From UHGV virus genome UHGV-2095518: a stretch of 15,633 nt of DNA; one strand, 5' to 3'. The translations under genes were made by a program, and so were the position numbers. Source of the stretch: a virus. Under the pieces are notes generated by a model. That model was not told where the DNA came from. It saw nothing but the letters and a program-made list of their open reading frames with translations, and made no database searches. Below, in pieces: positions 859-15,214 of this stretch (its first letter is position 1; each line of letters begins with the position of its first letter).

Positions 859-1008
859 TTCTTGCTCCTCAATCCATTAAAATCTCAGCAATAGTAGTTG
901 TTACGTCCGCCACTGGCTCAGAGCTGACTATCCGCTAAATTTAGCTCAGTGCCGTAGCTGTGTCAGAACAAACCTAAGCCGAAACCGTTTATTACAAAAC
1001 AATAAATA

Positions 1009-1437: not shown

Positions 1438-1466
1438 TTTTCCTCACATATGTCATATAGTAAAGG

Positions 1467-1496
1467 ATTATATATACCGTTGTTTTGGACGCTCAA
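1467..1496 (-). promoter_or_regulatory. Candidate sigma70 promoter for the 1009..1437 lipoprotein gene
   Basis: On the minus strand TTGAGC (-35) is followed after ~16-18 nt by TATATAAT (-10), about 30-40 nt upstream of the start codon in an AT-rich intergenic region. Confidence 0.3.
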
Positions 1497-2025
1497 ACAG
1501 CGAATCAGATCAAATAAAACGCACATTTGTTAACATTTACACAAAGTCTGCGTGGGATATTCTGAAAGAATATCCATAATGTGGAGAGAATCTATTGAAG
1601 TGCATGGTGCCGGGTGCCTCCCGGTGAACAAAATGTTCGTGATACCTGTCGGCGACAGAAAAGGTTAATGGTATCACCCCACCGCACAGGGGGATTCACC
1701 ATGCAGGAGTTTTCTTAGCAAACTCACTGCGCGCCCGGCAACTCCCAACCACATAAAATGCGGAGTTTGTGGTATTTATGCATATAACTCGCAGGAATTA
1801 TCTTAAAAAACTGATGTCGATCCGGATTAAAAAGAAGCAGGTCATCATCAGATGACTGGAAAAAAGGAAAACAAAAAATACTCATCATACAGTTTTGATT
1901 GCAGGGATGAGCCTGCTATGCACAATATGCAGAATATAAGCAAGATAAAAATATGCAGGCATATTATTTCGGGTTTTGTTATTAACACAACCTTTTTAAT
2001 AATCATTTGGCATACAATAAACCAG

Positions 2026-2055
2026 CCCAAAAAGAACCGCCTAAACAGGCGGTTG
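2026..2055 (-). terminator. Rho-independent terminator-like hairpin
   Basis: Stem AACCGCC / GGCGGTT with a 6-nt loop; on the minus strand it is followed by CTTTTTGGG. Confidence 0.35.
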
Positions 2056-2371
2056 GTCAATACAAAGGATGCTTCGTCTTTATTATAGTAATCTGAGGCG
2101 TCGGGTGTCTTGTATCAGACAACATATTGTCCCGCTAAACAGCGAATTACAAACCACCCTGCAATGATCTCTCATCTCATTTTATATGAGTTGACGACAT
2201 CAGGATAACGCATCATCAGCCCCTGCCAAGAAATATCAAAACTCCCGCCAGCAATGTGTTATCACAATATTGTAAAAAAAACACAGCACCGAAACTATAA
2301 CTGGTCTCTGTTATAATTTGGAGCAGAAAGACCAGTTGCCCAACTAGCAGCATTCTCCCCTGCTTTCCTGA

Positions 2372-2400
2372 CGTAAAAAAACCGCATTAAGCGGTTTTTT
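2372..2400. terminator. Bidirectional rho-independent terminator (tR'-like) just downstream of the Q-like gene
   Basis: AAAAAAACCGC-ATTAA-GCGGTTTTTTT: a GC stem flanked by an A-run on one side and a T-run on the other, about 90 bp past the stop of the 2482..3024 gene. Confidence 0.6.
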
Positions 2401-2481
2401 TACGATGTCCATGTCTGCAATCCGCCTCGCGATACAGCTTTGCGAAGCATAGCAAAATTGAAGCAGTTTATACGTAAGAAA

Positions 2482-3024
2482 TCAAGCCATTTTCTCAGCA
2501 AATGATTCACGCATGGGAATATATAGGGCATACTCAGCAACAGCTAACCAATTAGCAATCCGTTTTTCGCATGTGCTAAAACACCACTCTGGGTGTGCAT
2601 CATTTAGCAATTCAGCCATTTTGCGCTTAGTCATCCCCCGCCCTTCATAGCGTTGCCGGAGAATGCAAATCAATCCTGGATGCTCTGCCAGCACCTCACT
2701 TATGACTCGATCAATACATAACGCCTCTGCATCAGTACAATGCGCCAGCCAGCTCTTTTGCTTGCCGTTGATCATCTCTCGCAAAAACGCTTCCAGCTCA
2801 GCTTTCTCTATTCCCGCTTTTTTCATTCTGCGCAGGGCTTCATTAATGGCTGTTTTCGTCAGTTTTTTGGATGCCAACAACTGATTGAACATATTCCCTG
2901 ACCTGCCACCGCCAATATACGACCAGCGCCCCCACATACGTAGTTTTCCCTGAATCCAGACACTTTCCAGCGTGGTGAGGCGAAGGTGTTCTCCGCTTTT
3001 TCCTGTATTCGTTGGGTAAATCAT
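2482..3024 (-). CDS. Putative late-gene antiterminator (Q-like)
   Basis: 180-aa ORF whose start overlaps the upstream gene stop by 4 nt. The N-terminal LRMWGRWSY motif resembles the RWGAW motif of small Q antiterminators such as DLP12 QuuD. It sits directly upstream of a strong terminator and, further on, a holin. Confidence 0.5.
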   Translation of the reverse strand: MIYPTNTGKSGEHLRLTTLESVWIQGKLRMWGRWSYIGGGRSGNMFNQLLASKKLTKTAINEALRRMKKAGIEKAELEAFLREMINGKQKSWLAHCTDAEALCIDRVISEVLAEHPGLICILRQRYEGRGMTKRKMAELLNDAHPEWCFSTCEKRIANWLAVAEYALYIPMRESFAEKMA

Positions 3025-3311
3025 AAATGACCTTTCTTTCTCCAGATTTCTTGTGTGCGAAAAACCCCTTCAGCATGCATCAGGCGCAATTCTTCTTTGG
3101 TGTAATCGCTGGTTTTTACCCGCCCGTCGATTAGATCGTGGCATGAGCTACAGGCTATCGCCGCCTGCATATCGTGTGGTTTTGTCGCTGTTCCGCACGT
3201 CCCCGCCAGCCTGTAATGCGCCAGCACAGAGGTTTCGGGATTGTGATTGCAGTAGCCAGGGATTCTGATCTGGCACATCTGGCCTTTAGCCGCTTTACGT
3301 AAATTCACCAT
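3021..3311 (-). CDS. YbcO-like (DUF1364) Cys-rich putative nuclease
   Basis: 96-aa protein MVNLRKAAKGQMCQIRIPGYCNHNPETSVLAHYRLAGTCGTATKPHDMQAAIACSSCHD... matches my recollection of E. coli DLP12 YbcO in length, Cys spacing and several motifs (LRKAA, CQ.RIPG.CN.NPETSVLAH.RL.G.CGT.TKP, IACS.CHD). Translationally coupled to both neighbours. Confidence 0.6.
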   Translation of the reverse strand: MVNLRKAAKGQMCQIRIPGYCNHNPETSVLAHYRLAGTCGTATKPHDMQAAIACSSCHDLIDGRVKTSDYTKEELRLMHAEGVFRTQEIWRKKGHL

Positions 3312-3910
3312 TACGCAAACTCCAGTAGTTGTGCGGCCACATTTTCAACTTCCTCCTGAGAGGAGAATTTACGGAACAGAATCCAGTTCCACAGCACATT
3401 CAGTACAGATTTATAAACCTGCTGAAACTCGACTTCGTCCATATTCGCAAAAGCGATGGATTTTGCCCGACGCCCACGGCTACCGTCCGGATAAATATGC
3501 TCGGTGTAAAATCCGGCCTGAATGGTTACCCACTCGCGGAAAGCCTCAAACGACTTTAGCAACGCCGTATCCCGGGTTCTACGAGTCGCAACGGTGTTAA
3601 GGTATTGCTCTGCGGCATCACTCAGGGCTGGCGTGTGTTCCCGACCAACTGATTCGCACAGGTAATCAACGAAACCAGACAGCAGTTCTCGTTCGCGAGG
3701 CGTGATCGCCCCACCGACCGGAGTCCAGTAATCGAATCCCAGTTGCAGGAGTTTGAAAAAACGCTTGTGGAATGCGTAGTTACGCACACGCTTAAAGTCT
3801 GCGTGTATCCACTCACCTATTTTGATTTGATGCAGAAAATCGCAACTCTCCGGCGTCGCCGGGAGAAGTAAACCAGAAGAAGTTTGTTTGACCAGTTGTA
3901 TATGCGCCAT
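3311..3910 (-). CDS. Lambdoid nin-region protein (DUF1367-like), function unknown
   Basis: 199-aa ORF lying immediately upstream of the YbcO-like and Q-like genes, overlapping the YbcO-like start by 1 nt. The call rests on position and size; the family assignment is from memory. Confidence 0.45.
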   Translation of the reverse strand: MAHIQLVKQTSSGLLLPATPESCDFLHQIKIGEWIHADFKRVRNYAFHKRFFKLLQLGFDYWTPVGGAITPRERELLSGFVDYLCESVGREHTPALSDAAEQYLNTVATRRTRDTALLKSFEAFREWVTIQAGFYTEHIYPDGSRGRRAKSIAFANMDEVEFQQVYKSVLNVLWNWILFRKFSSQEEVENVAAQLLEFA

Positions 3911-4361
3911 TTCTCAATCTCTCGATGGCGCAGTGCAGCAGATGCCAGTTGTTCAGGCTGACGTATAAAGTATAAATAAACTGGTTCCAGTGTAAAGCCC
4001 CCACCTTAATGGAATAAAAACCAAACAACAGATTGCTGGGATACAAACAACGCTTATTATTAAAAGCGGTTAAACAAATTAAATTTTAATGTTATGCAAA
4101 TTTGTCAGATCACCATAATATCTCATTTGAAAACCGCTGAAATAACAGCCCTATCAGGGTTAATCATATTAAGGTGAGTAAATATGGAAAACAACAAATC
4201 TGTACATTACGTTCCTTTTTTATCTGTAATACTTTTTGTTTTATGCTGTGCGTGGGCATTATTTTTATAAAAATATTTACAGATGAAGTAAACCCGCCAA
4301 TCAGGTTAACTGTGGCTGCGTTGAGGATGCATAATACATCAGAGGTTGCGGGGATTTCTCC

Positions 4362-5701
4362 CATAAGCGCTAACTTAAGGGTTGTGGTATTACGCCTGAT
4401 ATGATTTAACGTGCCGATGAATTACTCTCACGATAACTGGTCAGCAATTCTGGCCCATATTGGTAAGCCCGAAGAACTGGATACTTCGGCACGTAATGCC
4501 GGGGCTCTAACCCGCCGCCGCGAAATTCGTGATGCTGCAACTCTGCTACGTCTGGGGCTGGCTTACGGCCCCGGGGGGATGTCATTACGTGAAGTCACTG
4601 CATGGGCTCAGCTCCATGACGTTGCAACATTATCTGACGTGGCTCTCCTGAAGCGGCTGCGGAATGCCGCCGACTGGTTTGGCATACTTGCCGCACAAAC
4701 ACTTGCTGTACGCGCCGCAGTTACGGGTTGTACAAGCGGAAAGAGATTGCGTCTTGTCGATGGAACAGCAATCAGTGCGCCCGGGGGCGGCAGCGCTGAA
4801 TGGCGACTACATATGGGATATGATCCTCATACCTGTCAGTTCACTGATTTTGAGCTAACCGACAGCAGAGACGCTGAACGGCTGGACCGATTTGCGCAAA
4901 CGGCAGACGAGATACGCATTGCTGACCGGGGATTCGGTTCGCGTCCCGAATGTATCCGCTCACTTGCTTTTGGAGAAGCTGATTATATCGTCCGGGTTCA
5001 CTGGCGAGGATTGCGCTGGTTAACTGCAGAAGGAATGCGCTTTGACATGATGGGTTTTCTGCGCGGGCTGGATTGCGGTAAGAACGGTGAAACCACTGTA
5101 ATGATAGGCAATTCAGGTAATAAAAAAGCCGGAGCTCCCTTTCCGGCACGTCTCATTGCCGTATCACTTCCTCCCGAAAAAGCATTAATCAGTAAAACCC
5201 GACTGCTCAGCGAGAATCGTCGAAAAGGACGAGTAGTTCAGGCGGAAACGCTGGAAGCAGCGGGCCATGTGCTATTGCTAACATCATTACCGGAAGATGA
5301 ATATTCAGCAGAGCAAGTGGCTGATTGTTACCGTCTGCGATGGCAAATTGAACTGGCTTTTAAGCGGCTCAAAAGTTTGCTGCACCTGGATGCTTTGCGT
5401 GCAAAGGAACCTGAACTCGCGAAAGCGTGGATATTTGCTAATCTACTCGCCGCATTTTTAATTGACGACATAATCCAGCCATCGCTGGATTTCCCCCCCA
5501 GAAGTGCCGGATCCGAAAAGAAGAACTAACTCGTTGTGGAGAATAACAAAAATGGTCATCTGGAGCTTACAGGTGGCCATTCGTGGGACAGTATCCCTGA
5601 CAGCCTACAAAACGCAATTGAAGAACGCGAGGCATCGTCTTAACGAGGCACCGAGGCGTCGCATTCTTCAGATGGTTCAACCCTTAAGTTAGCGCTTATG
5701 G
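4362..5701 (+). mobile_element. IS186-like insertion sequence (IS4 family)
   Basis: Terminal inverted repeats CATAAGCGCTAACTTAAGGGTTG at 4362-4384 and its reverse complement ending at 5701 enclose a single transposase gene. The flanking 12 bp are also inverted-symmetric (GGGGATTTCTCC on the left, GGAGAGATCCCC on the right), so the exact ends are uncertain by about 12 bp. Confidence 0.8.
4417..5529 (+). CDS. insL: IS186 transposase
   Basis: The ORF translates MNYSHDNWSAILAHIGKPEELDTSARNAGALTRRREIRDAATLLRLGLAY..., recognised as the IS186 transposase. The ORF track opens at a GTG at 4411; the ATG at 4417 is the more likely start. Confidence 0.85.
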   Translation: MNYSHDNWSAILAHIGKPEELDTSARNAGALTRRREIRDAATLLRLGLAYGPGGMSLREVTAWAQLHDVATLSDVALLKRLRNAADWFGILAAQTLAVRAAVTGCTSGKRLRLVDGTAISAPGGGSAEWRLHMGYDPHTCQFTDFELTDSRDAERLDRFAQTADEIRIADRGFGSRPECIRSLAFGEADYIVRVHWRGLRWLTAEGMRFDMMGFLRGLDCGKNGETTVMIGNSGNKKAGAPFPARLIAVSLPPEKALISKTRLLSENRRKGRVVQAETLEAAGHVLLLTSLPEDEYSAEQVADCYRLRWQIELAFKRLKSLLHLDALRAKEPELAKAWIFANLLAAFLIDDIIQPSLDFPPRSAGSEKKN

Positions 5702-5758
5702 GAGAGATCCCCGCCACTCTTCGTGTGTCAGGTATCCTCAATGCACCCTTTCCTCTCC

Positions 5759-5784
5759 AAATAAAAAAGCTCCCGAAGGAGCTT
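5759..5784 (-). terminator. Rho-independent terminator ending the virion-gene operon
   Basis: AGCTCC-CGAA-GGAGCT hairpin; on the minus strand it is followed by TTTTTTATTTGG, about 20 bp past the stop of the 5805..6314 gene. Confidence 0.55.
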
Positions 5785-5804
5785 TAAAATACAAGGGATG
5801 ACTC

Positions 5805-6314
5805 TTAATCCCAATCAATCCAGTTGTAGACGATACGAAGTGACGGGCGCACAGCAGCAGTCACATCTTCGGTACTAAAGTCGATTGCATCACTGTAGAT
5901 TTTGCAGTCCAACATTTCAATTGTTGTAGCAGCTTTTGTCACAGCGTTAACCCCGGAAGATTTGGATTCAGGGGTAGCAGCCATCGTGATATCAACATAG
6001 TCTTTCTCTGCAATGCGATCCTTAATGAACTGAAGAATATCGCCTTCGATAGTCTCCACGCACTGGACCTGGATTTCCCCAGAGTTTCGAATTGGACCGT
6101 GCTGGTTGAACTTCACACCATTCGGACCATAGTCCTCCACATCCTCGCGGGTCATTTCAGGAATTTGCGATGTGCGAACCGGTACGCTGATATCTTCATG
6201 GCCTGCAAAAGTGAGCTGGAATTCAGAAGATACCAGTCGTTCGCCTTTGGCCGCGTTGGCAGTATAGCGGCCCTTAATAAATTTACGGTTTCCCTTAGTG
6301 TTATTGTGCCCCAT
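5805..6314 (-). CDS. Hypothetical virion protein, last gene of the structural operon (possible tail tube or tail-associated)
   Basis: 169-aa ORF with an AAAAGGA Shine-Dalgarno, 11 bp after the upstream gene, in an operon with a sheath-like gene. No family recognised by eye. Confidence 0.4.
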   Translation of the reverse strand: MGHNNTKGNRKFIKGRYTANAAKGERLVSSEFQLTFAGHEDISVPVRTSQIPEMTREDVEDYGPNGVKFNQHGPIRNSGEIQVQCVETIEGDILQFIKDRIAEKDYVDITMAATPESKSSGVNAVTKAATTIEMLDCKIYSDAIDFSTEDVTAAVRPSLRIVYNWIDWD

Positions 6315-6325
6315 ATAAAATCCTT

Positions 6326-6907
6326 TTACTGGAACGCCCGAACAATATCGGAGCTGTTATATATCGAAGAACCGGTCAACTGGAGGTTGACGGTGTTTTT
6401 CAGGAAATGCCCATTACTATCCCTGGGGGCATCGAGATCGAAACTAAGGTCCTGGATAGCGACATCAATGATGTTGATCCGGCGACCAATGTTTAGCGTC
6501 ACACGCTCCGGGATTCGACCACCAATACTAGCGTCTTTAAGTTCCGGGCTAATCATTGCTGACAACGCGGCGATAGCACCTGAAACTTCCGTATATGGGT
6601 TAAACAAAGCAATGAAAGTTACTGGCAGCGTGAAAGTCGGCGGTGTCCCCCCTTCCCAAACCATTAAGCTGTTCCAACGGGCAACTGACGTTGTTTCAGT
6701 ACCAACCTGCGCAAAACCACTGAAGGCACCAGCAACAGAACCCATAGACATACCGGTAAACGGCGCTTCCCAATTCTGGGCCAGATTCATTGCCGCCCCC
6801 TGGCTGATATATCCGGTAACCTGGTACTGAGAGTTCGTTAAAGTAACTTTCAGAAATGGCGATACACCGTCAGCCTGGCTGTAAACCCCAAAAGGTATAG
6901 GTGCCAT
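6326..6907 (-). CDS. Hypothetical virion protein (size fits a tail tube protein)
   Basis: 193-aa ORF in the same operon, Gly/Ser/Thr-rich. The function is inferred only from context. Confidence 0.4.
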   Translation of the reverse strand: MAPIPFGVYSQADGVSPFLKVTLTNSQYQVTGYISQGAAMNLAQNWEAPFTGMSMGSVAGAFSGFAQVGTETTSVARWNSLMVWEGGTPPTFTLPVTFIALFNPYTEVSGAIAALSAMISPELKDASIGGRIPERVTLNIGRRINIIDVAIQDLSFDLDAPRDSNGHFLKNTVNLQLTGSSIYNSSDIVRAFQ

Positions 6908-6942
6908 TCAAGTTAAAGGCCGGAGTTCTCCGGCATCCTCCT

Positions 6943-7758
6943 TTAGCCGAGGCGCTTACGGCGCAGTTTCATTGACTTTTTGCGGGCCAGTTTTGCCGCG
7001 CCGGTCTGGGCTTTACGACGCGCTTTTTTCAGCGCCGATTTTTGAGCCGCAGTCAGACGTTTTTTACGCAGACGTTTACGGATGAGCTTGATCTCACCGT
7101 TACGAACAACCTTCTTAAATGCTTCAGTCAGCATTTCATCAGAAGTGCCAGCAACAACAAACGCCGCTTCCAGTTCGTCGCGGTCGTCGCTATCCAAACC
7201 AGCGATAGCGGAACCAACATCAGCAGCTGCGTCGTCGTCTTCATCGTCGGTCAATGCTTCGATCAGGTCATCATCTACACCGCATGCTGCGAGGAAGTCA
7301 GCAACATTTGCCCATGCTTCGTTATAGGCATCGTCCTGTTCTTCTGTAACTTCGGTATCGTCGTCGTCAGAGATACCAGCGATAGCCTGAACGAAACCAT
7401 CAAGGGAGTCGAAAGTCAGATCACCGCTATCAGCCCAGGCGAAAACGGCATCGGCCGCATTACTCAACGCATTCTGCATAGCACTTCGATTTGCAGCTTC
7501 CAGAATCATCTTGTGCGCCTGTTCGACGGTCCATTCTTTACCTTCTTTTCCTTCCAGGATTTGCTCAGGTGCCGGGTCAGATTGAACGTTCTCGTTAATC
7601 TGTGCCGCCGGTTCCGGATTATTATTAATCACCGGTTCGGTTGGCGGTTGGGCACTTACACGGGCAGATTCCATCAACTGCACCGGATCAGCGTTCAAAG
7701 CGAAACGGGACAGTCCATTCCCCAAAAATGCCCCGGATTGAAAAAAGTTTTTGCTCAT
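6943..7758 (-). CDS. Acidic protein with a poly-basic C-terminal tail, function unknown
   Basis: 271-aa ORF with an AAGGGA Shine-Dalgarno, starting 10 bp after the sheath-like gene. The centre is extremely D/E-rich (..SDDDDTEVTEEQDD.., ..TDDEDDDAAAD.., ..DSDDRDELE..) and the last ~50 aa are K/R-rich (KLIRKRLRKKRLTAAQKSALKKARRKAQTGAAKLARKKSMKLRRKRLG). Confidence 0.5.
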   Translation of the reverse strand: MSKNFFQSGAFLGNGLSRFALNADPVQLMESARVSAQPPTEPVINNNPEPAAQINENVQSDPAPEQILEGKEGKEWTVEQAHKMILEAANRSAMQNALSNAADAVFAWADSGDLTFDSLDGFVQAIAGISDDDDTEVTEEQDDAYNEAWANVADFLAACGVDDDLIEALTDDEDDDAAADVGSAIAGLDSDDRDELEAAFVVAGTSDEMLTEAFKKVVRNGEIKLIRKRLRKKRLTAAQKSALKKARRKAQTGAAKLARKKSMKLRRKRLG

Positions 7759-7767
7759 TGTATTCCC

Positions 7768-9357
7768 TTACTTAATAAGCAGCGGTACGCCATGGATACG
7801 ACGGGCTACGCCAGTCGGGCAGCAGGCCCAGACTACTTCCCATTTATCGAATTCCGCCTGCGTAACTTTCAGCACATACGGTTCTGTACCGTCAGCATCA
7901 GGATCACGAGGAGCCACCAGAGCGCCGGAGGCGACAAAGCGATCTAAAAGTTTGGTCATCCCTTTAGTCAGGCCAGCCGCAGTAATACCGTCCGGGCTAT
8001 GCTTCATCTGTCGGGCTAACTGGACAAAGAAACGGCTGATTGCATTCATCAGGGATGGGACGTGCTGGAAGTGCAGATAGTTATCCTGCGTGCAGCAAGT
8101 TAAAGCATCGTCGATGATCATCTGGCCAGAGGTGCCAACAGATACTTTATTGAGACGGCCCTTGACCATTGCTTCTTCGTCCGGGGTATCTTCCGGATAC
8201 AGCGGTTGAATTGACGCACGAGCAATGACGGCACGTTCTTCACCAGCCGGTGAGTAATGCCAACCGCCGACATCAGAGTTTTTCTTGACGCCACGAGCTT
8301 TCGCCGCATACGCCGCGCCAGACAGACCGAAGACCACACGGGATTGGGTCCATTTGTCTTTGCAGGAGAACGGGAAGTGATAGACAGCACAGCTTACATA
8401 ATCGGTACCAAGTAAACCGGTATCTTCAACAGCAGAGATCGCTTCCGTGTACGTCAATGTCGGTTTGACATCAAAGAAGCCATCAATCAGGCGATCTGCA
8501 CAGATTTTACCTAATGCGGTGATAGCCGCATTGTCATAGCAGCCCAAGCCAAGAACAGCGGTGTACATGTACGGCGCATTGTTCAGCACTTTCACCGCAC
8601 GCAGGTACGCAGCGGTTGAGATTTTCGACTGATCACCGTTGGTACCACCAGTGAACGCCAACGATTTTTTGTTTGTTACTTTCGCTGTAGAAATCAGATC
8701 TTCATTAACAACCGCGCGCAGATATTTAGAACGGGCTTCCAGAGCCGTAGGCAGATAACACAAGCGGCCCATGTCATCTTTCGCTTCTTCCACCAAAGAC
8801 ACAGTGTGTGTCTCCAGGGTCGTTACCACACCGAGCGAAGTCGTCTGGGTTAGTTTTAAGAGGAAGCGTTCATTACCCGCGCTGTCCGCTGTTGCCGTTT
8901 CGATGGTTAACTCACGGGTAGGTGAAATACACGGATCACCATCATCAACGTAGATAGCAAAGGCTTCGCCGCTATCAAGTTCAATTTCAGAACCATATGG
9001 CAACGCAGTGTAAGCCGGTTCGCCTGATTCATCGAACATAATAATCGGGAACTTCGCATCATCCGGAACAGCACGGACAACATAACCAGACGTTTGCTGA
9101 ATAGCTTCGTACACATGGCGAATTGGTTCGAACTGTGAGCCGGAAGACGGCTTCAGCGGTTCGCCGAGAACATCTTCGTAATTGGACTCAGTAACCGCAA
9201 GAACAGTAAACGGCTTGCCACGCGCAAATACGCCAATACCAGCCCACAAGCTGCTATTTAATGCAACACCGGTAGATAACGTCGCATCGGCATTGATCGG
9301 GCTAACCGCGACGCCGGATGCATTACCTAATGACTGTTGAATTGAATATTGAGACAT
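7768..9357 (-). CDS. Contractile-tail sheath protein (putative)
   Basis: 529-aa ORF with an AGGGAAAG Shine-Dalgarno. It contains a GGWHYSPAGEERA segment resembling the W.SPAG..RG motif I recall from T4 gp18 and P2 FI, and has a sheath-like C-terminal region; the size and operon context also fit. Confidence 0.55.
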   Translation of the reverse strand: MSQYSIQQSLGNASGVAVSPINADATLSTGVALNSSLWAGIGVFARGKPFTVLAVTESNYEDVLGEPLKPSSGSQFEPIRHVYEAIQQTSGYVVRAVPDDAKFPIIMFDESGEPAYTALPYGSEIELDSGEAFAIYVDDGDPCISPTRELTIETATADSAGNERFLLKLTQTTSLGVVTTLETHTVSLVEEAKDDMGRLCYLPTALEARSKYLRAVVNEDLISTAKVTNKKSLAFTGGTNGDQSKISTAAYLRAVKVLNNAPYMYTAVLGLGCYDNAAITALGKICADRLIDGFFDVKPTLTYTEAISAVEDTGLLGTDYVSCAVYHFPFSCKDKWTQSRVVFGLSGAAYAAKARGVKKNSDVGGWHYSPAGEERAVIARASIQPLYPEDTPDEEAMVKGRLNKVSVGTSGQMIIDDALTCCTQDNYLHFQHVPSLMNAISRFFVQLARQMKHSPDGITAAGLTKGMTKLLDRFVASGALVAPRDPDADGTEPYVLKVTQAEFDKWEVVWACCPTGVARRIHGVPLLIK

Positions 9358-9417
9358 AACTTTCCCTGTTATGCGCCCCGCACGGGGGCGCTATGTTAAA
9401 CGGAGAACTTCCCCTGA

Positions 9418-10125
9418 TTACTCAGAGTCACCGGCATCAATCGTGTCGCCGCTTATAAAGTTAAGCCCGCCTTTTTTGGCCATTGTCAGCGTTACACGAG
9501 TGAAGTAATCAGCGCCGTTGCGTGGGTGCATATCGTTGATAGCCGAACCCCACAGTGTGGTACGGTTGACCAGCGCCGGAGTGGTCGGATGCTGGAACGG
9601 GATAGCCGGGACAGCATCACCAGTCACGAAGCCTGCTTTACCCGGATTTTCATCACGGACGTAGCACAGCACATCCATCGAGCTGAACTGAATGTTCTCT
9701 GTCGTTAAGTTCTTACAAATACCAGCAGGTACTTCGTACACTTTTACGTTACCGAACAGGGTACCGATGTAGTGAACATACGGAGTCTGGATATAGTCTT
9801 CGGCTGGCTGGAAGAAATCCTTCGGCAACTGTTTGAAGAAAGATGCTGCATCAGCACCAGCAAACATCCCCATCGCACCAGAAGATTTAACGCGCTCAAT
9901 AATGTCGCGATATACAGTCTGGAATTTTCCACGAATGATGGTTGCCCATACATCAAAGGACTGGTTAACCGGCAGAGCGATGTCAAAGGTGTCGGTCGCA
10001 AGAGTGCGCCAGATCATGATGCGAAGACGCAGCATATCCTGTTCATGAGACAGGTATTCCTTCAGGGTGCGGAACTGTAGGGAACCCAGGTCCAGACCAA
10101 ATTCACGCTGTGCTTCATACGCCGC
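9418..10125 (-). CDS. C-terminal part of a capsid-like ORF, in frame with and immediately downstream of the TAG at 10126-10128
   Basis: The reading frame stays open from the TAG through AAYEAQREFGLDLGSLQFRTLKEYLSHEQDMLRLR... to the stop at 9418. The first ATG (10033-10035) has no convincing Shine-Dalgarno, so this looks like a continuation of the upstream frame rather than an independent gene. Confidence 0.45.
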   Translation of the reverse strand, partial: AAYEAQREFGLDLGSLQFRTLKEYLSHEQDMLRLRIMIWRTLATDTFDIALPVNQSFDVWATIIRGKFQTVYRDIIERVKSSGAMGMFAGADAASFFKQLPKDFFQPAEDYIQTPYVHYIGTLFGNVKVYEVPAGICKNLTTENIQFSSMDVLCYVRDENPGKAGFVTGDAVPAIPFQHPTTPALVNRTTLWGSAINDMHPRNGADYFTRVTLTMAKKGGLNFISGDTIDAGDSE

Positions 10126-11124
10126 CTATACCGTGTGCTCAGCCGCGATAACGAACTGACTTGGGAACAGGGTGTATTTCTTCATTTCGTGGTTGATCAG
10201 CGGGATCAGCTCAGGAGCGGCTTCAATATTGATTTCCGTCTCAATTGCGATCTCAGTGCCTTTATCCGGCGCTTTGGAGAACGACAGGGCAATCTGACCA
10301 ATGTTGTAGTTCAGAGAGCAGGTAACAGTGATTTGCTCACCAGCAGCATTAGTAAACGAGTGAAGTAGGCTGCCGGAACCGTTATCAACAACAGACTTAA
10401 TACGGTTAACGTAGATGTTAGTGCGACCTTTTCGGATTGGTACATTCTGGCCTTCGAAGTCTTCCATCTTGAAGGTTGCGGTTTTGCTGGTGCCATCGGA
10501 GCTTGCCACCAGCACATAGCGGCGGCGTAACTGGCTGTACACACCGACGGATTGCATGTCCAGAACATCACCAGCAGCATAAGAACCAAAAGAGGAACCT
10601 GCCACGTTAAAGACTTCATAGATGTCGGACTGGTCACGCGTAACCGGAATGAAGGTACACGCATCAGCGGTAGCTGCCCCCAACTGAACAGGCAGGATCA
10701 TCGCGAGGAATAAAGGCAGACGCATAACACCGTCAGAAACGCTCATCATCTCTGCTGCGACGGATTCCAGCATCGCTTTATTAGTGGCATCCATGCTATT
10801 GCGGGTGGACTCAATCAGGCAGTTTTCCAGCGTCTGGTGGCAGGAGGCCAGAATTTCCGGACGCGGCATAGATTTATGTGCTGCGGCGTAGTCAGCCAGT
10901 GCACTTGCCCACGCGGTAGCAATTTGAGCGGTGGCATTATCAGAGATACCCGCAAAAATTGGGTCTTTACGTGCAGCTTCAAGGATAGATGCGGCACGCG
11001 CGGCATCATCTTTGATGAATTGGTTATCAGTACCGAACTGTGCTGTACTTGCCCAGCCAAGAACGGCTTTAGAGCGTTTTGCGATATCTGCAATACGATT
11101 CTGGTATTCGCGTAAGTTACTCAA
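10126..11124 (-). CDS. N-terminal part of a putative major capsid protein precursor (about 568 aa if the TAG at 10126-10128 is read through)
   Basis: Probable TTG start at 11122-11124, 6 nt after AAGGAAG; the ORF track opens at an upstream TTG at 11145. The frame ends in TAG after ...AAEHTV. It is the first gene of the virion operon, immediately downstream of parB/parS, which is where I recall P1 placing its major head gene; the combined size of about 62 kDa also fits. Confidence 0.45.
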   Translation of the reverse strand: MSNLREYQNRIADIAKRSKAVLGWASTAQFGTDNQFIKDDAARAASILEAARKDPIFAGISDNATAQIATAWASALADYAAAHKSMPRPEILASCHQTLENCLIESTRNSMDATNKAMLESVAAEMMSVSDGVMRLPLFLAMILPVQLGAATADACTFIPVTRDQSDIYEVFNVAGSSFGSYAAGDVLDMQSVGVYSQLRRRYVLVASSDGTSKTATFKMEDFEGQNVPIRKGRTNIYVNRIKSVVDNGSGSLLHSFTNAAGEQITVTCSLNYNIGQIALSFSKAPDKGTEIAIETEINIEAAPELIPLINHEMKKYTLFPSQFVIAAEHTV

Positions 11125-11145
11125 GTTACTCTTCCTTAAACACAA

Positions 11146-11388
11146 GGCACTTGTGTGAATCCCTTTTCGGAAGAGATTTTATTGAAAGTCACTTGTTGAC
11201 TTTCTCGCGAAAAGTAATTTTTTAAATTTTTTGTGCGGGGAAGTGGACGGTGAATGCAGGCGTTAAATTGTGGGAATTTCAGTCTGAAACCCCCCTAAAA
11301 AACACATGCAAATCACAAGGTTAGCAATGAAATCGGTGCGGGACATTTTAGGAAGGGGAGGGGCTAACACCACCTCCCACCAGCGGGA
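11146..11388. promoter_or_regulatory. parS-like partition site region, probably also carrying the promoter of the virion operon
   Basis: Intergenic segment directly downstream of parB, the position of parS in P1-family plasmids. It contains an 8-5-8 palindrome GAAAGTCA-CTTGT-TGACTTTC (11184-11204), a TGAAATCGGTG motif (11327-11337) resembling the P1 box A/box B arrangement, TGAAT/ATTCA heptamer-like repeats and an AT-rich tract. Confidence 0.45.
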
Positions 11389-12354
11389 TTATTCCCCAGC
11401 AGACATTTTCCCAATGATTTTTTTTATTGCTTCGTCAATTTCAGTTTGCACTTCAGACGGGAGTCTGGAGAACTCGTAGGCGACAACCCGTTTTTTCGGA
11501 TCGGACTTCTTTCGAGCATATTGGCGACGGTCAGAGAAGTCTCGCAGCTTCTCAACCACCACAGATTTAACCGGCGCGGGCTTCAGGCTTTTGCTTTCCG
11601 CTTTGAAGATAGCCAGTATCTTCGCTTTATCCTCTTTCGCGCCCTCAGTCTCTGCAATTCGCTCGCGCACCGTATCAACCAGATCTCCAATCGGTACGTT
11701 TTTGGCGTTAGCATCTTCGGAGATCTGGAGCAGCAACTGGTAATCAGGCAGGGCGAGATCGCTGGCAACAGGGAAGACAGCAATCATCTCATCCGGCACC
11801 GCCGCAGCCTGGAAAGCTCGCGTCACTTTAGCCTTTGAGATGTTCTCAGCTCGGGCGATCTCTTCTTTGGTCATATTCTTGCCGTACATAACCTCGAAGC
11901 GTTTACCCAGCTCGCGCAGAGTGTGTTCGCGGGCTGTCTGGATATCAATGGCCAGCTGGCGGGCATCCGCCAGGCTGATCTCATCTTTCGTCACCAGAAT
12001 CTCAAATTTCGTTTCATTGAAGATACACGCAGCGCGGCGACGTGATCCGTCCAATACCTCAATGCGCTCCCCAACCATACGACCGATAGCCGGGAAGAAC
12101 TGTTGCAATTTAATGGTGCGGGAAATATCGCTTACCGACTCAGGGGTGAGCAGAGACTGATCGCGGCCGTTAACTGCCGGGTCAACGAACGTGCGCGACT
12201 CAATCTCACCACTCAGCACAACGGTAAGCAAAAATTTAGCCTGGCGACCAGATTTTAGGGTAAAGGTTTTGGTGCCTTCACTGCCTTCAAGCATGCGAGC
12301 AAACTCGGAGCTATTCTTGCCCAGCACTCGTCCACGGGAAACTATTTTTTTCAT
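11389..12354 (-). CDS. parB: ParB centromere-binding partition protein (type Ia)
   Basis: 321-aa ORF with the ParB GSRRRAA motif (LDGSRRRAACIF) and an HTH region, translationally coupled to parA (4-nt overlap). The overall pattern is P1/P7 ParB-like but clearly divergent from the P1 ParB I recall. Confidence 0.85.
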   Translation of the reverse strand: MKKIVSRGRVLGKNSSEFARMLEGSEGTKTFTLKSGRQAKFLLTVVLSGEIESRTFVDPAVNGRDQSLLTPESVSDISRTIKLQQFFPAIGRMVGERIEVLDGSRRRAACIFNETKFEILVTKDEISLADARQLAIDIQTAREHTLRELGKRFEVMYGKNMTKEEIARAENISKAKVTRAFQAAAVPDEMIAVFPVASDLALPDYQLLLQISEDANAKNVPIGDLVDTVRERIAETEGAKEDKAKILAIFKAESKSLKPAPVKSVVVEKLRDFSDRRQYARKKSDPKKRVVAYEFSRLPSEVQTEIDEAIKKIIGKMSAGE

Positions 12355-13562
12355 GCCGCCTCACCCCTAACAAACTCAATTCGATCAAACACAGCCTTAG
12401 TGAAACGCTCGGCCTCGGTTCGTGCCTTCTTCAGCGCCTCTGCACTGCCTGGATACGATTGCGGGTTGGCACTGATTACGGTGTCGAAAGACTCGCCGCA
12501 TCGCTCAAAGCCATCCAGACGAGGCAGAGAAGAGTCCAGAATGTTGCTGGCGTAAACCTCACGCGCAAGGCTGTGTGATGTCTCGTGATCGCGCTTGCCG
12601 GTCATCTTCGACATAAAACCAATGCTGGCGCTCAAACGCGGTTCTACGCCTTCCTCCTCCAGTTGCTCCAGCATTTCTGGCAGACGGGTGAGATATTTCA
12701 GTGTTGAGTGGAAGTCAACCTGGGCTGGTGGGGTAGGGGTAAGCAGCAAATCGCTGGCCGCCAGACCGTTGAGCAGGAACGGATCCAGGTGTGGACCGGT
12801 ATCAATAAAGATAAAGTCATAATCATCCGCAACACGATCAATGATATTGCGTCGAAGGATTTCGTACTGATTTTGTCCGGGAAGATGCTCTTCAACCAGC
12901 TCTTTCCATTGGCTGGCAACAAAGCCATCGTCGATAGAGGCTGGAATCACGTCTACGCCAGGAACGATGGTCGGACGAATCACCTCTTTGCGTAGCGTCT
13001 CCGCGTCCAGGTCGTTCAGCATCGCCTGCGCGGCGGTTTCCAGGATGGAACCAATACTGTGAGTATGGTCGAGGAACATTGTGCTGGATGCCTGAGGGTC
13101 AAGGTCAATTACCAGAATGCGCAGATCGTGACGCAGTAAATCCTGATGCACACGCAGAGCGTGCGCCAACGTTACTGTGGAAACCGTTTTGGATACGCCA
13201 CCCTTCAGGTTTACGACAAAAATAACGTAAGGCGATTTGTGAATGTCGCGATATTTGGGGATCTTACGGTGGGCATAGATATCAATGACGTTCTGGATGG
13301 TCAGCGCGTACTGTTCAACGTTACCGACCTGTTTCTTGTTGAACTGGTACCCATCATCTTCCATCTCTTTGATGGCCTGCTCCACAATGCGGCGGCTCAG
13401 CTTCGGCAACTTTGCCACAGCGTTACGAGTGAACGTCTGATAATACTCGGTCTGATTGAACTCTTTACGCTGATCTTCAATATCCTGACTCATGGCCTTA
13501 AGTAATGCGCTTGCACGAAGAGCTATGGTGCCGACACCGCCGTAATCGCGTTTCATCATCAT
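12351..13562 (-). CDS. parA: ParA partition ATPase (type Ia, with N-terminal DNA-binding extension)
   Basis: 403-aa ORF with the deviant Walker A motif NLKGGVSKTVSTV and a conserved C-terminal region (RLDGFERCGESFDTVISANP..AVFDRIEF) as in P1 ParA. The ~100-aa N-terminal extension is typical of autoregulatory type Ia ParA. Confidence 0.9.
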   Translation of the reverse strand: MMMKRDYGGVGTIALRASALLKAMSQDIEDQRKEFNQTEYYQTFTRNAVAKLPKLSRRIVEQAIKEMEDDGYQFNKKQVGNVEQYALTIQNVIDIYAHRKIPKYRDIHKSPYVIFVVNLKGGVSKTVSTVTLAHALRVHQDLLRHDLRILVIDLDPQASSTMFLDHTHSIGSILETAAQAMLNDLDAETLRKEVIRPTIVPGVDVIPASIDDGFVASQWKELVEEHLPGQNQYEILRRNIIDRVADDYDFIFIDTGPHLDPFLLNGLAASDLLLTPTPPAQVDFHSTLKYLTRLPEMLEQLEEEGVEPRLSASIGFMSKMTGKRDHETSHSLAREVYASNILDSSLPRLDGFERCGESFDTVISANPQSYPGSAEALKKARTEAERFTKAVFDRIEFVRGEAA

Positions 13563-13665
13563 CTCCTTATCATTTAGTATGAGTGAATTGTACGTTTGAT
13601 TCTGCTACGTGCAACTTTTTTTGATTCGTGCGCCAATTATTGCACGTAAAGAAATGGCGATGAGG
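13563..13665 (-). promoter_or_regulatory. parAB promoter/operator region
   Basis: Immediately upstream of parA: a large inverted repeat CTACGTGCAA (13604-13613) ... TTGCACGTAA (13639-13648) around an AT-rich centre, as expected for the ParA autoregulatory operator. Confidence 0.5.
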
Positions 13666-13950
13666 TTATTAGATGTGTGCTGGAGGGATGATGCAGGACC
13701 AGAATGTGCGATAGAGGGAAGTCGCATTGAATTATGTGCTGTGGAGGGATCGCTGGTATCAAATATGTGTGCTGGAGGGAAAGATAGAAGATTAGATGTG
13801 CGCTGGAGGGAAACTTGGATGGTTAGATGTGTGCTGGAGGGAATGTCTGGGCAAACTGCGTGGCGCAACCCTCCAGCGCACACCAAAAACAGGAAAATGG
13901 GCAGGCATTCCCGGCAGCGCACATTTTTCAAATGCAGCTGCCCTCCAGCA
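13666..13950. repeat. incA iteron array (about nine 19-bp RepA-binding repeats in both orientations)
   Basis: Repeats of GATGTGTGCTGGAGGGA and variants at about 13666, 13698, 13726, 13758, 13789 and 13820 in one orientation, and CCCTCCAGCGCACAC-type copies at about 13861, 13900 and 13935 in the other, directly downstream of repA. This is the P1 incA copy-control arrangement. Confidence 0.85.
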
Positions 13951-13955
13951 CACAC

Positions 13956-14816
13956 TTATTCGGGAAGTTTCAGCTTTGGATTGCGAGAATGGACGATTAC
14001 AAAACTTTCCCGGCCTTTCTTCTCAATTGAACAGTCGAGATAGCCGATTGTTTTAAGCTGTTCTATCGCTTTCTTAATGATACGGTTTTGCTCGCCAACA
14101 GCTGACTGCAAAGCCAGGCGCTCACGGATTCGCGCGAACGATAGCGGCAACGGGTTCTGCGGAAGGCTTTCGATGAAAGTGTAAATGGCTTGTGCAGCTT
14201 CTTTCTTCGGAAGGGCACGCAAGGCGTGGTGTTGCAACAGAACGCGATAATCAAGCTGGAACAGCTCCCACAGCTTCGAATCAGCCTCCAGTTCTATCAG
14301 ATCAAGGTCAGCATCAAAACGCCCGACCTTCAGCAGACCAGTCTGATAGCCGCCTTTAGCATCTTTTCCGCGCTTAAAAGCGATACCCTTGTTACGCAAG
14401 CGTCCAAGTGATTCATGAATGGTTAAACGCAGTTTCGCATCCAGACGTTTTGAGGGGAAACCACAGGCTTTAGCGAATTCCTGAAACGATAACTGGATGG
14501 TGTTTGAGGACAAGCCGTATTTGCTGAACGCGTAGATGACACCGATCCACGTTTTGAAATCAGTATCCATATCGAGTCGAGGACCGGTGATTTTAATATC
14601 ATCGTAACCCTCGGCTTTAGCTATCTCCAGCTGGGAAAACGCTTTGGTGGCATCAATCTCTTTACTTTCTCCTTTGCTCTTTGATGGCTTCGGCACGAAT
14701 ACCCCCAAACGCATCAACGCTACAGGCTGCACAGTGTTGTTTGAATTAACTGTTAGTTCTTTTGCCTTACTTTCAATGTCTGCGTAAAGAATATCGGATA
14801 TAAAAGATTGATTCAT
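13956..14816 (-). CDS. repA: Plasmid replication initiator RepA (P1 type)
   Basis: 286-aa ORF (MNQSFISDILYADIESKAKELTVNSNNTVQPVALMRLGVF...) flanked upstream by five and downstream by nine copies of the same 19-bp iteron, the defining organisation of the P1 R replicon. The protein matches my recollection of P1 RepA. Confidence 0.9.
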   Translation of the reverse strand: MNQSFISDILYADIESKAKELTVNSNNTVQPVALMRLGVFVPKPSKSKGESKEIDATKAFSQLEIAKAEGYDDIKITGPRLDMDTDFKTWIGVIYAFSKYGLSSNTIQLSFQEFAKACGFPSKRLDAKLRLTIHESLGRLRNKGIAFKRGKDAKGGYQTGLLKVGRFDADLDLIELEADSKLWELFQLDYRVLLQHHALRALPKKEAAQAIYTFIESLPQNPLPLSFARIRERLALQSAVGEQNRIIKKAIEQLKTIGYLDCSIEKKGRESFVIVHSRNPKLKLPE

Positions 14817-14871
14817 ATTGCTTTTTCCGAATTATGTGGATAGTTTTTATCAGTGATGATAACTACCCTGG

Positions 14872-14977
14872 CTTTCCCGTCAGCACACATCCTATATCCC
14901 GCCAGCACACATTAGCAACCCGTCAGCACACATTTTTTTCCCTCCAGCGCACATCGTTTTCCCTCCAGCACACATCG
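14872..14977. repeat. incC iterons (five 19-bp repeats) within oriR, overlapping the repA promoter
   Basis: Five direct copies of ..CC(C/G)(T/C)CAGC(A/G)CACAT.. at about 14872, 14897, 14918, 14938 and 14959, immediately upstream of the repA start. Confidence 0.85.
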
Positions 14978-14989
14978 CGAAAGGCTTCT

Positions 14990-15100
14990 AAGCCAGACGG
15001 GACGCGGCCTACGACGATCAGGGATCTATATGGATCTAATTGGGATCTGTATGGACCTGATTATTGGATCTATCCAGTGGATAATGTGGATAAGTGAAAA
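14990..15100. promoter_or_regulatory. oriR core: GATC-containing heptamer repeats and tandem DnaA boxes
   Basis: Five GATC sites (15016, 15023, 15033, 15044, 15067) within repeated GGATCT motifs, followed by DnaA boxes AGTGGATAA (15076-15084) and TGTGGATAA (15085-15093). A further DnaA-box-like TGTGGATAG lies at 14835-14843 on the repA side. Confidence 0.7.
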
Positions 15101-15121
15101 AACCGGCCAACGTAGCCGGTT
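15093..15121 (-). terminator. Rho-independent terminator shielding oriR from incoming minus-strand transcription
   Basis: AACCGGC-CAACGTA-GCCGGTT hairpin; on the minus strand it is followed by TTTTCAC. Confidence 0.4.
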
Positions 15122-15135
15122 GGAAGGGAGTCGTA

Positions 15136-15214
15136 TTATTCTACGCTTTCGATGAGAAGACCATGTTCATAGCATTTAAGCTCATCGCCCTCGTACAGGA
15201 ATTGGTATCCAATT
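15136..15214 (-). pseudogene. 3' remnant of a gene truncated by the IS3-family insertion
   Basis: The minus-strand frame reads ...[25 protein letters not shown] then TAA (15136-15138), followed by the terminator hairpin. The frame is cut off at 15214/15215 where the IS end begins. Confidence 0.3.

Follow-up and report, generated by a model that had tools for sequence, protein, structure and literature searches.

A P7-type parS centromere and the predicted late promoter LP23 as neighbouring elements between parB and gene 23 of a P1/P7-related replicon

Centromeres and late promoters of P1 and P7

The P1 parS site (incB), the founding member of the P1par class, combines heptamer A boxes, hexamer B boxes and a spacer bent by IHF. 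It lies between parB and gene 23, with the late promoter LP23 following after 68 nt. The P7 parS (AF503408, features 61630-61712) comes directly after parB, and the site described below shares its location and architecture with both, and the order and spacing of the boxes with P7. ParB binding needs A2-A3-B2 only, and the B boxes act as discriminators, with B2 setting incompatibility (PMC10999674).

P1 has 11 late promoters, in every one of which a conserved inverted repeat of 9 bp constitutes the Lpa site (PMC10695390). In the P1/P7 promoters LPs, LPdar, LPlyz, LPpro, LPmat, LPsit, LPpac and LP23, the repeat AAGTGACTT is followed after 4 nt by TAnnnT; AC precedes the box, there is no -35 element, and a morphogenetic operon lies downstream, all of which also holds for the LP23 copy considered here. 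The P1 and P7 records both label this element "predicted late promoter LP23" and mark its -22 region and -10; gene 23, downstream of it, is treated as essential (PMC10695390).

Here, these systems are compared with a 15,633-nt stretch of viral DNA (UHGV-2095518, hereafter the window), and in particular with the interval that separates parB from gene 23 (Table 1). An earlier note on this DNA had suggested that a parS-like region doubles as the promoter of the virion operon; all of the motifs that it named are present, displaced by 1-2 nt at most. The interval very probably holds two adjacent, independent cis elements of P1/P7, a P7-type parS and LP23. Both are already known, being annotated at homologous positions in the P1 and P7 reference genomes.

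Table 1. Features in and around the parB-gene 23 interval (positions in the window)
Feature	Position	Strand	Basis or remark
parB, 321 aa, P7-type centromere-binding protein	11389-12354	-	Pfam PF08775 ParB, E=1.2e-32
parS centromere, P7 class	11262-11344	-	Aligned to annotated P7 and P1 parS; layout B1-A1-IHF-A2-A3-B2-A4
Box B1, discriminator hexamer GTCCCG	11339-11344	-	Identical to P7; P1 has TCGCCA
Box A1, ATTTCAT	11327-11333	-	Alignment; identical to P7
IHF core AATCACAAGGTTA (predicted)	11311-11323	+	Position homologous to annotated P1/P7 IHF site
Box A2, GTTTCAG	11284-11290	-	P7 has ATTTCAG
Box A3, CTGAAAT, inverted relative to A2	11276-11282	-	Identical to P7
Box B2, TTCCCA	11271-11276	-	Identical to P7
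Box A4, ATTTAAC	11262-11268	-	P7 has GTTTCAC, P1 ATTTCAC
parS-LP23 spacer, 67 nt	11195-11261	-	C/T-rich, then A-rich; poorly conserved
8-5-8 palindrome, GAAAGTCA-N5-TGACTTTC	11184-11204	.	Perfect inverted repeat, arms 11184-11191 and 11197-11204
LP23, predicted Lpa-dependent late promoter	11176-11194	-	P1 and P7 GenBank annotation, homologous position
Lpa box AAGTGACTT, 9-bp palindrome (inverted repeat)	11186-11194	-	Annotated "LP23 -22 region" in P1 and P7
LP23 -10, TAAAAT	11176-11181	-	4-nt spacer TCAA from Lpa box
Gene 23 leader, LP23 -10 to start codon	11125-11175	-	Contains CTCTTCC, 7-3-7 hairpin and SD
CTCTTCC	11169-11175	-	Directly after LP23 -10
Second palindrome, 7-3-7, ACACAAG/CTTGTGT	11140-11146 and 11150-11156		In gene 23 leader
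SD of gene 23, GGAAGAG	11129-11135	-	Upstream of TTG 11124
Gene 23, major head protein	9418-11124	-	TTG start at 11124, as annotated in P1/P7
IS421	4360-5762		Cuts gene 23 operon 5.4 kb downstream

The parS site and the late promoter LP23

Alignment to the annotated P7 and P1 GenBank records places a canonical parS immediately downstream of parB in the parA-parB operon, with the parB stop codon 44 nt ahead of box B1, and so bears out the proposal of a parS-like region. All seven boxes align with their annotated P7 and P1 counterparts, in the order B-A ... A-A(inverted)-B-A. The plus-strand motif TGAAATCGGTG (11328-11338) corresponds to box A1 plus the 5-nt spacer that separates it from B1. The A1-A2 spacer is 36 nt long, as in P1 and P7; relative to P7 it is largely rewritten (~40% identity), but the IHF core within it is retained. 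This core agrees with WATCAANNNNTTR at 8/9 specified positions and is a predicted site: IHF-type matches number 16 across the window against 17 expected, a single match is without significance, and the assignment leans on position, not on match score. A single copy of the parS core TTTCANNNTGAAATNNCCA is present in the window, against 0.21 expected even with 2 mismatches allowed, and the A2-A3-B2 core TTTCAGACTGAAATTCCCA is unique there.

The variant boxes A2 and A4 both recur among natural plasmids. The G at position 1 of A2 is also found in plasmids CP091840 and CP050069, and ATTTAAC is typical of the allele group represented in the window; box A4 falls outside the minimal "parS small" (PMC10999674). 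The exact 84-nt allele is present in 18 natural plasmid records from four genera, 127 plasmid records match it at 90% identity or more, and a graded series of natural alleles connects it to P7, with every box kept. Judged by sequence, the window parS is an allele of P7 parS, and one that is common among IncY plasmids.

The partition proteins are those of P7 as well. ParA is identical to P7 ParA at 403/403 residues (100%) and ParB at 317/321 (99%), its C-terminal 81 residues (241-321) showing no difference, whereas identity to P1 ParB is 43%. Positions 5763-15213 of the window are 97.5% identical to P7; the replicon is assigned to the P7-like IncY type, and for typing purposes the window can be entered as an IncY replication and partition module of the P7 class. 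Plasmid pCFR-9161 (CP026237), considered as a source of the window, agrees with it at 99.8% identity from 4360 onward only, with a 21-nt indel, and does not match over the left 4.3 kb. Extrapolating from P1/P7 work, P7-type ParB dimers would engage the heptamer A boxes with a helix-turn-helix domain, and their C-terminal domain would contact the hexamer B boxes. Through the bend that IHF would introduce into the 36-nt spacer, the B1-A1 arm would be bound together with the A2-A3-B2-A4 arm, and the resulting ParB-parS complex would stimulate nucleoid-bound ParA, by which the plasmid copies would be positioned.

LP23 is correctly oriented and stands upstream of gene 23, with 51 nt between it and the TTG start; a homologue of the sheath gene is next in line. 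Its sequence is that of the P1 and P7 LP23, the promoter itself being without differences. TAAAAT, at which the earlier note had suspected an activator-dependent late promoter of the P1 kind, coincides with the -10 of this annotated, predicted promoter. The check that the same note had put forward, alignment to P1 and P7 parS and late promoters, yields P7-type boxes for the former and, for the latter, a perfect fit to the consensus derived from the nine annotated P7 late promoters, (a/g)AC-AAGTGACTT-N4-TAnnnT. The LP23 motif AAGTNACTTNNNNTANNNT has one exact match in the window, against 0.22 expected with 1 mismatch allowed; composite motifs such as this block and the parS core are beyond chance. 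The Lpa box and the -10 are present in 48/48 relatives from viral contigs, among them the isolated Cronobacter phage JK004, and the block GTCAACAAGTGACTT(T/G)(C/T)AATAA(A/T)AT is kept in all 48 while its flanks have diverged.

No -35 hexamer accompanies LP23, the -35 position reading GAAAGT, and a sigma-70 scan of 10900-11700 returned no promoter. The two sigma-70 promoters predicted for gene 23 in P1 (P1 23 and P2 23) were also considered; both are degraded in the window (-35, TTTTCG; P2 23 -10, GGGGGT). During lytic growth, Lpa would bind the 9-bp inverted repeat centred near -22 and allow the host RNA polymerase to initiate at the -10, TAAAAT, in the absence of a -35 element; transcription from LP23 would then cover gene 23 (head) and, after it, the downstream sheath and tail genes. 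As to sampling, a scan of species-representative genomes with gp23 recovered only three near-identical loci, and near-identical copies from P1 and P7 made up most of what a viral-contig scan with a 2-sequence profile found; diversity came only from a protein search and contig look-ups.

Specificity, shared DNA and palindromes

The earlier note had inferred a partition specificity distinct from P1, and this much stands. The P1 B boxes (TCGCCA) and ParB differ from those of the window, and a non-cross-reacting species, that of P7, is therefore expected. The specificity is not new, however, since the B boxes, ParA and ParB are those of P7, and it is best described as the known P7 type. Since the two B boxes and the C-terminus of ParB are those of P7, partition incompatibility with P7, not P1, is expected; the prediction for the par module is that P7-type plasmids are incompatible with it and that P1-type plasmids are compatible. 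That the allele confers a partition and incompatibility specificity apart from both P1 and P7 is extremely improbable: the rewritten central spacer, the B1-A1 spacer (CACCG, CGCCT in P7), the altered A2 and A4 and the abundance of the allele group (the 127 records) can be read in this way, but the boxes that discriminate (PMC10999674) are both those of P7, as are the ParB C-terminus and the whole of ParA, and the natural alleles grade into P7 without losing a box. Very unlikely, too, is the proposal that the same DNA serves as centromere and capsid promoter or, in a weaker form, that ParB spreading from parS controls LP23. The two elements are indeed adjacent at 48/49 P1par-type sites in viral contigs, the P1 record predicts the sigma-70 promoter P2 23 inside parS, and overexpression of ParB is said to silence genes flanking P1 parS (Rodionov 1999, as related in PMC5002424). 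Yet parS, with its end at 11262, and LP23, whose Lpa box ends at 11194, do not overlap; they form separately conserved islands, and conservation is poor over the 67 nt in between. Their distance in relatives varies from 66 to 69 nt through the length of an A-run, a homopolymer, by which a fixed phasing of parS and LP23 is ruled out. P2 23 is destroyed in the window, and the silencing is an overexpression effect that is dispensable for partition (PMC5002424). In gp23 homologues at 57-77% identity, a promoter made of box and -10 follows a terminator, with no parB or parS nearby; the presence of the promoter in distant relatives that have no parS leaves shared DNA unsupported. Conversely, one P1par-type parS (L090) lacks LP23. 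Two independent neighbours remain the preferred reading of the interval.

The two palindromes raise the further question of additional elements in this DNA. The 8-5-8 palindrome, centred at 11194, 13 nt upstream of TAAAAT, had been taken for the -22 element; this did not hold, since the annotated -22 region is the 9-bp AAGTGACTT, which the larger palindrome merely overlaps (by its promoter-proximal arm and part of its loop, the distal arm lying upstream of the box), and since relatives that keep the promoter do not conserve it. A separate role for the 8-5-8, as an extended or second Lpa site, as the operator of another protein or as a hairpin that stops or processes read-through parAB transcripts, is unlikely. 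Within the P1/P7 clade, 45/49 sequences have the palindrome in perfect form, the RNA hairpin has a folding energy of -9.1 kcal/mol (z = -3.27), half a copy of the Lpa box, AAGTCA, is found in the distal arm, and the parB-gene 23 interval has no intrinsic terminator, none having been found on either strand of 10900-11700. Set against this, the arms drop to 7/8 matches in two alleles through single one-arm substitutions, to 6/8 in one relative (L221) and to 5/8 in the class of JK004, a viable isolated phage, without compensating changes and with the box and the -10 intact. The other eight P7 late promoters that are annotated all lack an upstream arm of this kind, and perfect inverted repeats with arms of at least 8 nt arise in 119/2000 dinucleotide shuffles (6%) of the 264-nt intergenic region, the palindromes alone being only marginally unusual. 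As an intrinsic terminator the 8-5-8 was rejected: 3/8 pairs of its stem are G-C, and AATAAAATC follows, with no run of T that would supply a U-tract. The 8-5-8 thus appears to be a lineage-specific extension around the Lpa box and not an operative element, and the comparison singles out the 9-bp box as the part of the large palindrome that matters; the perfect repeat in the P1/P7 clade is compatible with some added role. The second palindrome that the earlier note had reported is likewise real, though it is a 7-3-7 repeat ending at 11156 and not at 11157. It does not abut the gene: the note had used the most upstream in-frame TTG (11145), whereas the annotated start is 11124, which puts the repeat in the 5' leader, 16 nt upstream of gene 23. 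Its interpretation as a regulatory or stabilising leader hairpin, or as a second Lpa box, is improbable as well. The 7-bp stem is perfect and, one G-U wobble allele excepted, invariant in the P1/P7 clade, and the palindrome includes AAGTGCCTT, which differs from the Lpa box by one mismatch and belongs to an 11-nt direct repeat, 42 nt away from the real box. However, the L208 and JK004 classes read GCTGCGG-TGC-CCTGTTT, which leaves 2-3 pairs, no TAnnnT hexamer stands 4 nt after the palindrome, RNAalifold on nine leaders gave no consensus structure and no pairs, and the fold of the leader has a z of -1.07.

The gene 23 leader and the state of the operon

In the fold-back inhibition of IS10/Tn10, the ribosome-binding site is complementary to a sequence located just upstream of where the element's own transcription begins, and only transcripts that enter from outside can sequester that site. 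A similar arrangement is conceivable for gene 23, and we put it forward tentatively, as a doubtful possibility: CTCTTCC, an anti-SD that, as in fold-back inhibition, lies just upstream of the predicted LP23 start, may mask the gene 23 SD in read-through RNA from parAB, while LP23 transcripts devoid of the anti-SD would be translated freely. The LP23 transcript should begin at or just past CTCTTCC and hence lack it. In the prophage state, by contrast, RNA that reads through from parAB, an operon without a terminator, would carry the anti-SD, its ribosome site would be sequestered, and capsid synthesis would be insulated from plasmid-maintenance transcription. If true, this would explain how a constitutive maintenance operon without a terminator can stand directly upstream of the major capsid gene.

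The pairing was assessed by duplex energy and a shuffle test, because the MAFFT register is one column off the register anchored on the start codon. The CTCTTCC/GGAAGAG duplex has an energy of -11.1 kcal/mol (p = 0.009 versus shuffled 8-mers). The JK004, L085 and L208 class retains the same pairing register with another sequence (TTGTCCT/AGGACAA), 4/7 pairs being changed on both sides, and in the clade at 57-63% gp23 identity CRAGCC/GGCTYG is found at these two sites as well (-7.3 to -12.2 kcal/mol, p = 0.007-0.044). As counter-evidence, RNAalifold gave no consensus structure and whole-leader z-scores are weak. Unlike the IS10/Tn10 pairing, that of gene 23 is missing from 4/13 leader types, 3 of which have an interior anti-SD hairpin instead. 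Rfam has no match in the region, the sole match in the window being STnc100 at 1548-1734.

The context of LP23 differs from that in P1 and P7. The first gene of its operon is interrupted by a TAG at codon 333 (10126-10128), in place of the CAG of P7 and of a Gln codon in P1; IS421 cuts the operon short, and there is no lpa gene within the window or in close plasmid relatives. Plasmid NZ_CP055093, which has an identical parS and the same TAG, has ~8.5 kb of P7 left, and neither lpa nor pacA was found in it. LP23 may be a relic in the window replicon, given the premature TAG, the IS421 cut and the lack of lpa from a plasmid with identical parS and TAG; that the replicon as a whole lacks lpa is surmised from this relative. 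The context would then illustrate the decay of a phage-plasmid to a plain resistance-plasmid backbone, with the centromere in use and the capsid promoter and gene as relics.

A P7-type centromere between parB and gene 23

Phage P7 matches the region at 93.5% identity over 801 aligned nt, and window positions 5763–15213 are 97.5% identical to P7 56130–65581. In the ORF map and Pfam assignments, parB is followed by a 264-nt intergenic region and then a long ORF. ParA is identical to P7 ParA at 403/403 residues and ParB at 317/321, with all four differences before residue 225 and the C-terminal 81 residues unchanged, vs. only 43% identity to P1 ParB. The ParA and ParB that an earlier note, made by a model from the sequence alone, had called divergent are thus the P7 proteins.

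In GenBank, the P7 (AF503408) and P1 (AF234172) records annotate ParB boxes A1–A4 and B1–B2 and an IHF site between parB and gene 23. When the window is aligned to the two records with a 1-nt deletion admitted on its side, the boxes fall as listed in the table, which bears out the proposed parS; the motif TGAAATCGGTG (11328–11338), which the note had compared to adjoining P1 boxes, comprises box A1 and the 5-nt spacer between A1 and B1. parS is built of a BA cluster and an AABA cluster of A and B boxes flanking an IHF site; ParB binding needs only A2-A3-B2, and the B boxes are the discriminators, with incompatibility set by B2 alone (PMC10999674, Lobocka laboratory). Both B boxes of the window are those of P7; by contrast, P1 has TCGCCA as both. 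Given these boxes, the published rules and the P7-type C-terminal 81 residues of ParB, the window parS is, by its sequence, a P7-species centromere. Its predicted specificity is therefore distinct from that of P1, as had been proposed, but not new.

Features of the window, with the basis of each assignment
Feature	Sequence or length	Position	Strand	Basis
repA		13956–14816	minus	ORF map, Pfam
parA		12351–13562	minus	ORF map, Pfam
parB		11389–12354	minus	ORF map, Pfam
box B1	GTCCCG	11339–11344	minus	alignment to P7/P1
box A1	ATTTCAT	11327–11333	minus	alignment to P7/P1
A1-A2 spacer	36 nt	11291–11326	minus	alignment to P7/P1
box A2	GTTTCAG	11284–11290	minus	alignment to P7/P1
box A3	CTGAAAT	11276–11282	minus	alignment to P7/P1
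box B2	TTCCCA	11271–11276	minus	alignment to P7/P1
box A4	ATTTAAC	11262–11268	minus	alignment to P7/P1
large palindrome	8-5-8	11184–11191, 11197–11204		repeat scan
LP23 "-22 region"		11186–11194		P1 and P7 records
LP23 -10	TAAAAT	11176–11181	minus	P1 and P7 records
segment directly after LP23 -10	CTCTTCC	11169–11175	minus
second palindrome	7-3-7	11140–11146, 11150–11156
gene 23 SD	GGAAGAG	11129–11135	minus
gene 23 start	TTG	11124		annotated
IS421 copy (IS4-family)		4360–5762
transposase ORF of IS421	372 aa	4411–5529

The spacer between A1 and A2 is only ~40% identical to that of P7, and exactly equal to it in length. The deviations from P7 parS (G at A2 position 1, ATTTAAC as A4, the rewritten spacer) recur in natural plasmids, and a graded series of natural alleles joins the window parS to P7, with all boxes kept throughout and the 36-nt spacer length and IHF core kept in every intermediate. 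Eighteen plasmid records, spanning Escherichia, Shigella, Enterobacter and Citrobacter, carry the exact 84-nt allele, and 127 carry one at least 90% identical to it; within the window, the A2-A3-B2 core occurs once. At the place homologous to the P7 IHF site, AATCACAAGGTTA matches 8/9 specified positions of the IHF consensus; since the window has numerous matches of this quality, the argument for an IHF site rests on position.

Divergence from P7 peaks locally in the spacer, the surroundings being otherwise at least 97% identical to P7. A P7-class parS-like sequence (75% identity over 80 nt, A2-A3-B2 intact) also lies in an unannotated stretch of pHum4b (NZ_OR724977), a 291-kb IncHI conjugative plasmid.

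The predicted late promoter of gene 23 and the large palindrome

The P1 and P7 records carry a "predicted late promoter LP23" for gene 23, which is treated as an essential gene (PMC10695390). In P1 the same paper counts 11 late promoters, in each of which a conserved 9-bp inverted repeat is the Lpa site. P7 has nine annotated late promoters, all sharing the pattern (a/g)AC-AAGTGACTT-N4-TAnnnT, of which AAC-AAGTGACTT-TCAA-TAAAAT in the window is a perfect instance; the exact 9-mer AAGTGACTT is found in only two late promoters, LP23 among them. The full pattern has a single exact match in the window; a search tolerating one mismatch would be expected to give 0.22. The LP23 annotation and the nine-promoter consensus uphold the late promoter of the earlier note but not its operator: the inverted repeat that would act as operator is the 9-mer with its centre at 11190 rather than the 21-nt palindrome, whose centre is 11194.

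Every motif listed in the note is present on reading 10900–11600 and in a repeat scan, including the perfect 8-5-8 repeat. Palindromes alone are only marginally unusual here: when the intergenic sequence was shuffled 2000 times with dinucleotides preserved, 119 of the shuffled versions had a perfect inverted repeat whose arms were at least 8 nt long. A TTTCANNNTGAAATNNCCAC search of viral contigs returned 49 loci with canonical parS (A1 at 36-nt spacing), of box-B classes P1 (32), P7 (14), JK004-type (TCCCCA; two) and TCACCA (one, without LP23). LP23 follows parS in 48/49, and GTCAAC-AAGTGACTT and the -10 are intact in all 48. The palindrome arms are perfect in the P1/P7 clade except for two alleles at 7/8, which lack a compensating change; a Salmonella houtenae relative retains 6/8 matching arm positions and the JK004 class 5/8, and this class keeps the LP23 box and -10 and includes JK004 itself, an isolated, plaque-forming Cronobacter phage. 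The upstream arm is absent from the other eight annotated P7 late promoters, and no terminator was found by scan, the 8-5-8 hairpin being without a U-tract. Comparing sequences, we conclude that the extension of the palindrome beyond the Lpa box, the site of the late activator, is lineage-specific and not required, although a minor auxiliary role may exist.

On an IMG/VR contig, L090, a parS-like site shows canonical P1par architecture with TCACCA as both B boxes, and LP23 is missing downstream. The box B dinucleotide of this P1par-family centromere differs from that in P1, in P7 and in the JK004 class.

Separation of parS from LP23, and the gene 23 leader

The note had suggested that the same DNA serves as centromere and late promoter. 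The facing ends of parS and the Lpa box are at 11262 and 11194. In a five-class alignment, conserved positions cluster in two islands, one made up of the parS boxes and the other a promoter block of 30 nt; the spacer between them is poorly conserved, with slippage in the A-run varying its length between 66 and 69 nt. Homologues of gp23 at 57–77% identity, traced to their contigs, have a box-plus-10 promoter after a terminator, e.g., ATGTAACTT-N4-TAnnAT or GATAAT, and ATATCACTT-TCCA-TAAAAT, and these contigs have no parB or parS nearby. Two predicted sigma-70 promoters for gene 23 in the P1 record, one of them inside parS, are both degraded in the window. Because the islands are separate, the distant promoters stand without parS and the sigma-70 promoters are degraded, dual use is not supported. 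The interpretation in the note is thus partly supported and its observation confirmed; all central elements were already known, since the reference genomes of P1 and P7 annotate them, and alignment with their parS and late promoters recovers P7-type parS and LP23.

Upstream of gp23 homologues at 57–63% identity on five contigs (L222, L224, L225, L227 and L231), a strong terminator is followed by ATGTAAC(T/A)T-TCCN-(TAnnAT or GATAAT), and parB is not adjacent to the capsid gene. ATGTAAC(T/A)T looks like a variant activator box, suggesting that phage-plasmids of Nissabacter, Pantoea, Enterobacter and Citrobacter have a diverged Lpa-type regulon.

The second palindrome lies in the gene 23 leader, 16 nt before the start codon, and is not conserved beyond the P1/P7 clade in the allele comparison and five-class alignment. 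RNAalifold yields no consensus leader structure, and whole-leader z-scores are weak. CTCTTCC is complementary to the gene 23 SD. In duplex tests of the post-(-10) segment against the RBS segment (p vs. shuffled 8-mers), this pairing scores -11.1 kcal/mol (p 0.009) in the P1, P7 and window leaders; the leaders of JK004 and two further loci, L085 and L208, reach -8.0 to -9.8 kcal/mol (p 0.008–0.039; TTGTCCT/AGGACAA in the L085 form), and those of the 57–63% clade -7.3 to -12.2 kcal/mol (p 0.007–0.044; CRAGCC/GGCTYG). The JK004/L085 class keeps the register of the window type with 4/7 pairs changed on both sides. The pairing is absent in 4/13 leader types, three of which carry an interior anti-SD hairpin in its place. 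Transcripts from LP23 would, given the predicted start, begin at or past CTCTTCC, so that the anti-SD would then be present only in read-through RNA from the unterminated parAB operon; we hypothesize that the pairing may act as fold-back insulation against this read-through.

Inside the second palindrome, AAGTGCCTT (11144–11152, minus) is a near-copy of the Lpa box with one mismatch; it forms part of a direct repeat of 11 nt at a distance of 42 nt from the real box, and lacks a -10 hexamer downstream. Tandem 9-mers, AAGTTACTC-AAGTTACTC, span the gene 23 start codon (11114–11132), where AAGTTACTC-AAGT-TACTCT on the plus strand forms a one-mismatch late-promoter-like site facing back to parS/parB; a similar sequence is present in P1 and absent from the JK004 class, and the site is unannotated in P1 or P7.

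Capsid gene decay and plasmid relatives

Codon 333 of gene 23 (10126–10128, minus) is a premature TAG, vs. CAG in P7 and a Gln codon in P1. The 61-nt allele bearing the TAG occurs in 20 of 717 matching plasmid records, none with an annotated CDS there, which suggests that capsid-defective IncY plasmids derived from P7 circulate as a lineage. The P7 homology ends at 5763, beside the IS421 copy, which truncates the late operon; positions 1–4359 are unrelated to P1/P7 and resemble E. coli chromosomal or lambdoid-prophage-like DNA, and this left 4.3 kb has no match in the plasmids compared. NZ_CP055093, a Shigella IncY multiresistance plasmid, has an identical parS and the same gene 23 TAG, and retains ~8.5 kb of P7, with lpa and pacA absent. 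In the lineage of the window and NZ_CP055093, the centromere is still used, and LP23 has probably become a fossil.

In the non-P1 part, Rfam matches the STnc100 sRNA family (RF02076) at 1548–1734 (minus, 86.6 bits, E = 9e-18). The oriR/incC iteron region has 21 extra bases (14929–14949), about one iteron period, relative to the otherwise 99.8% identical pCFR-9161.
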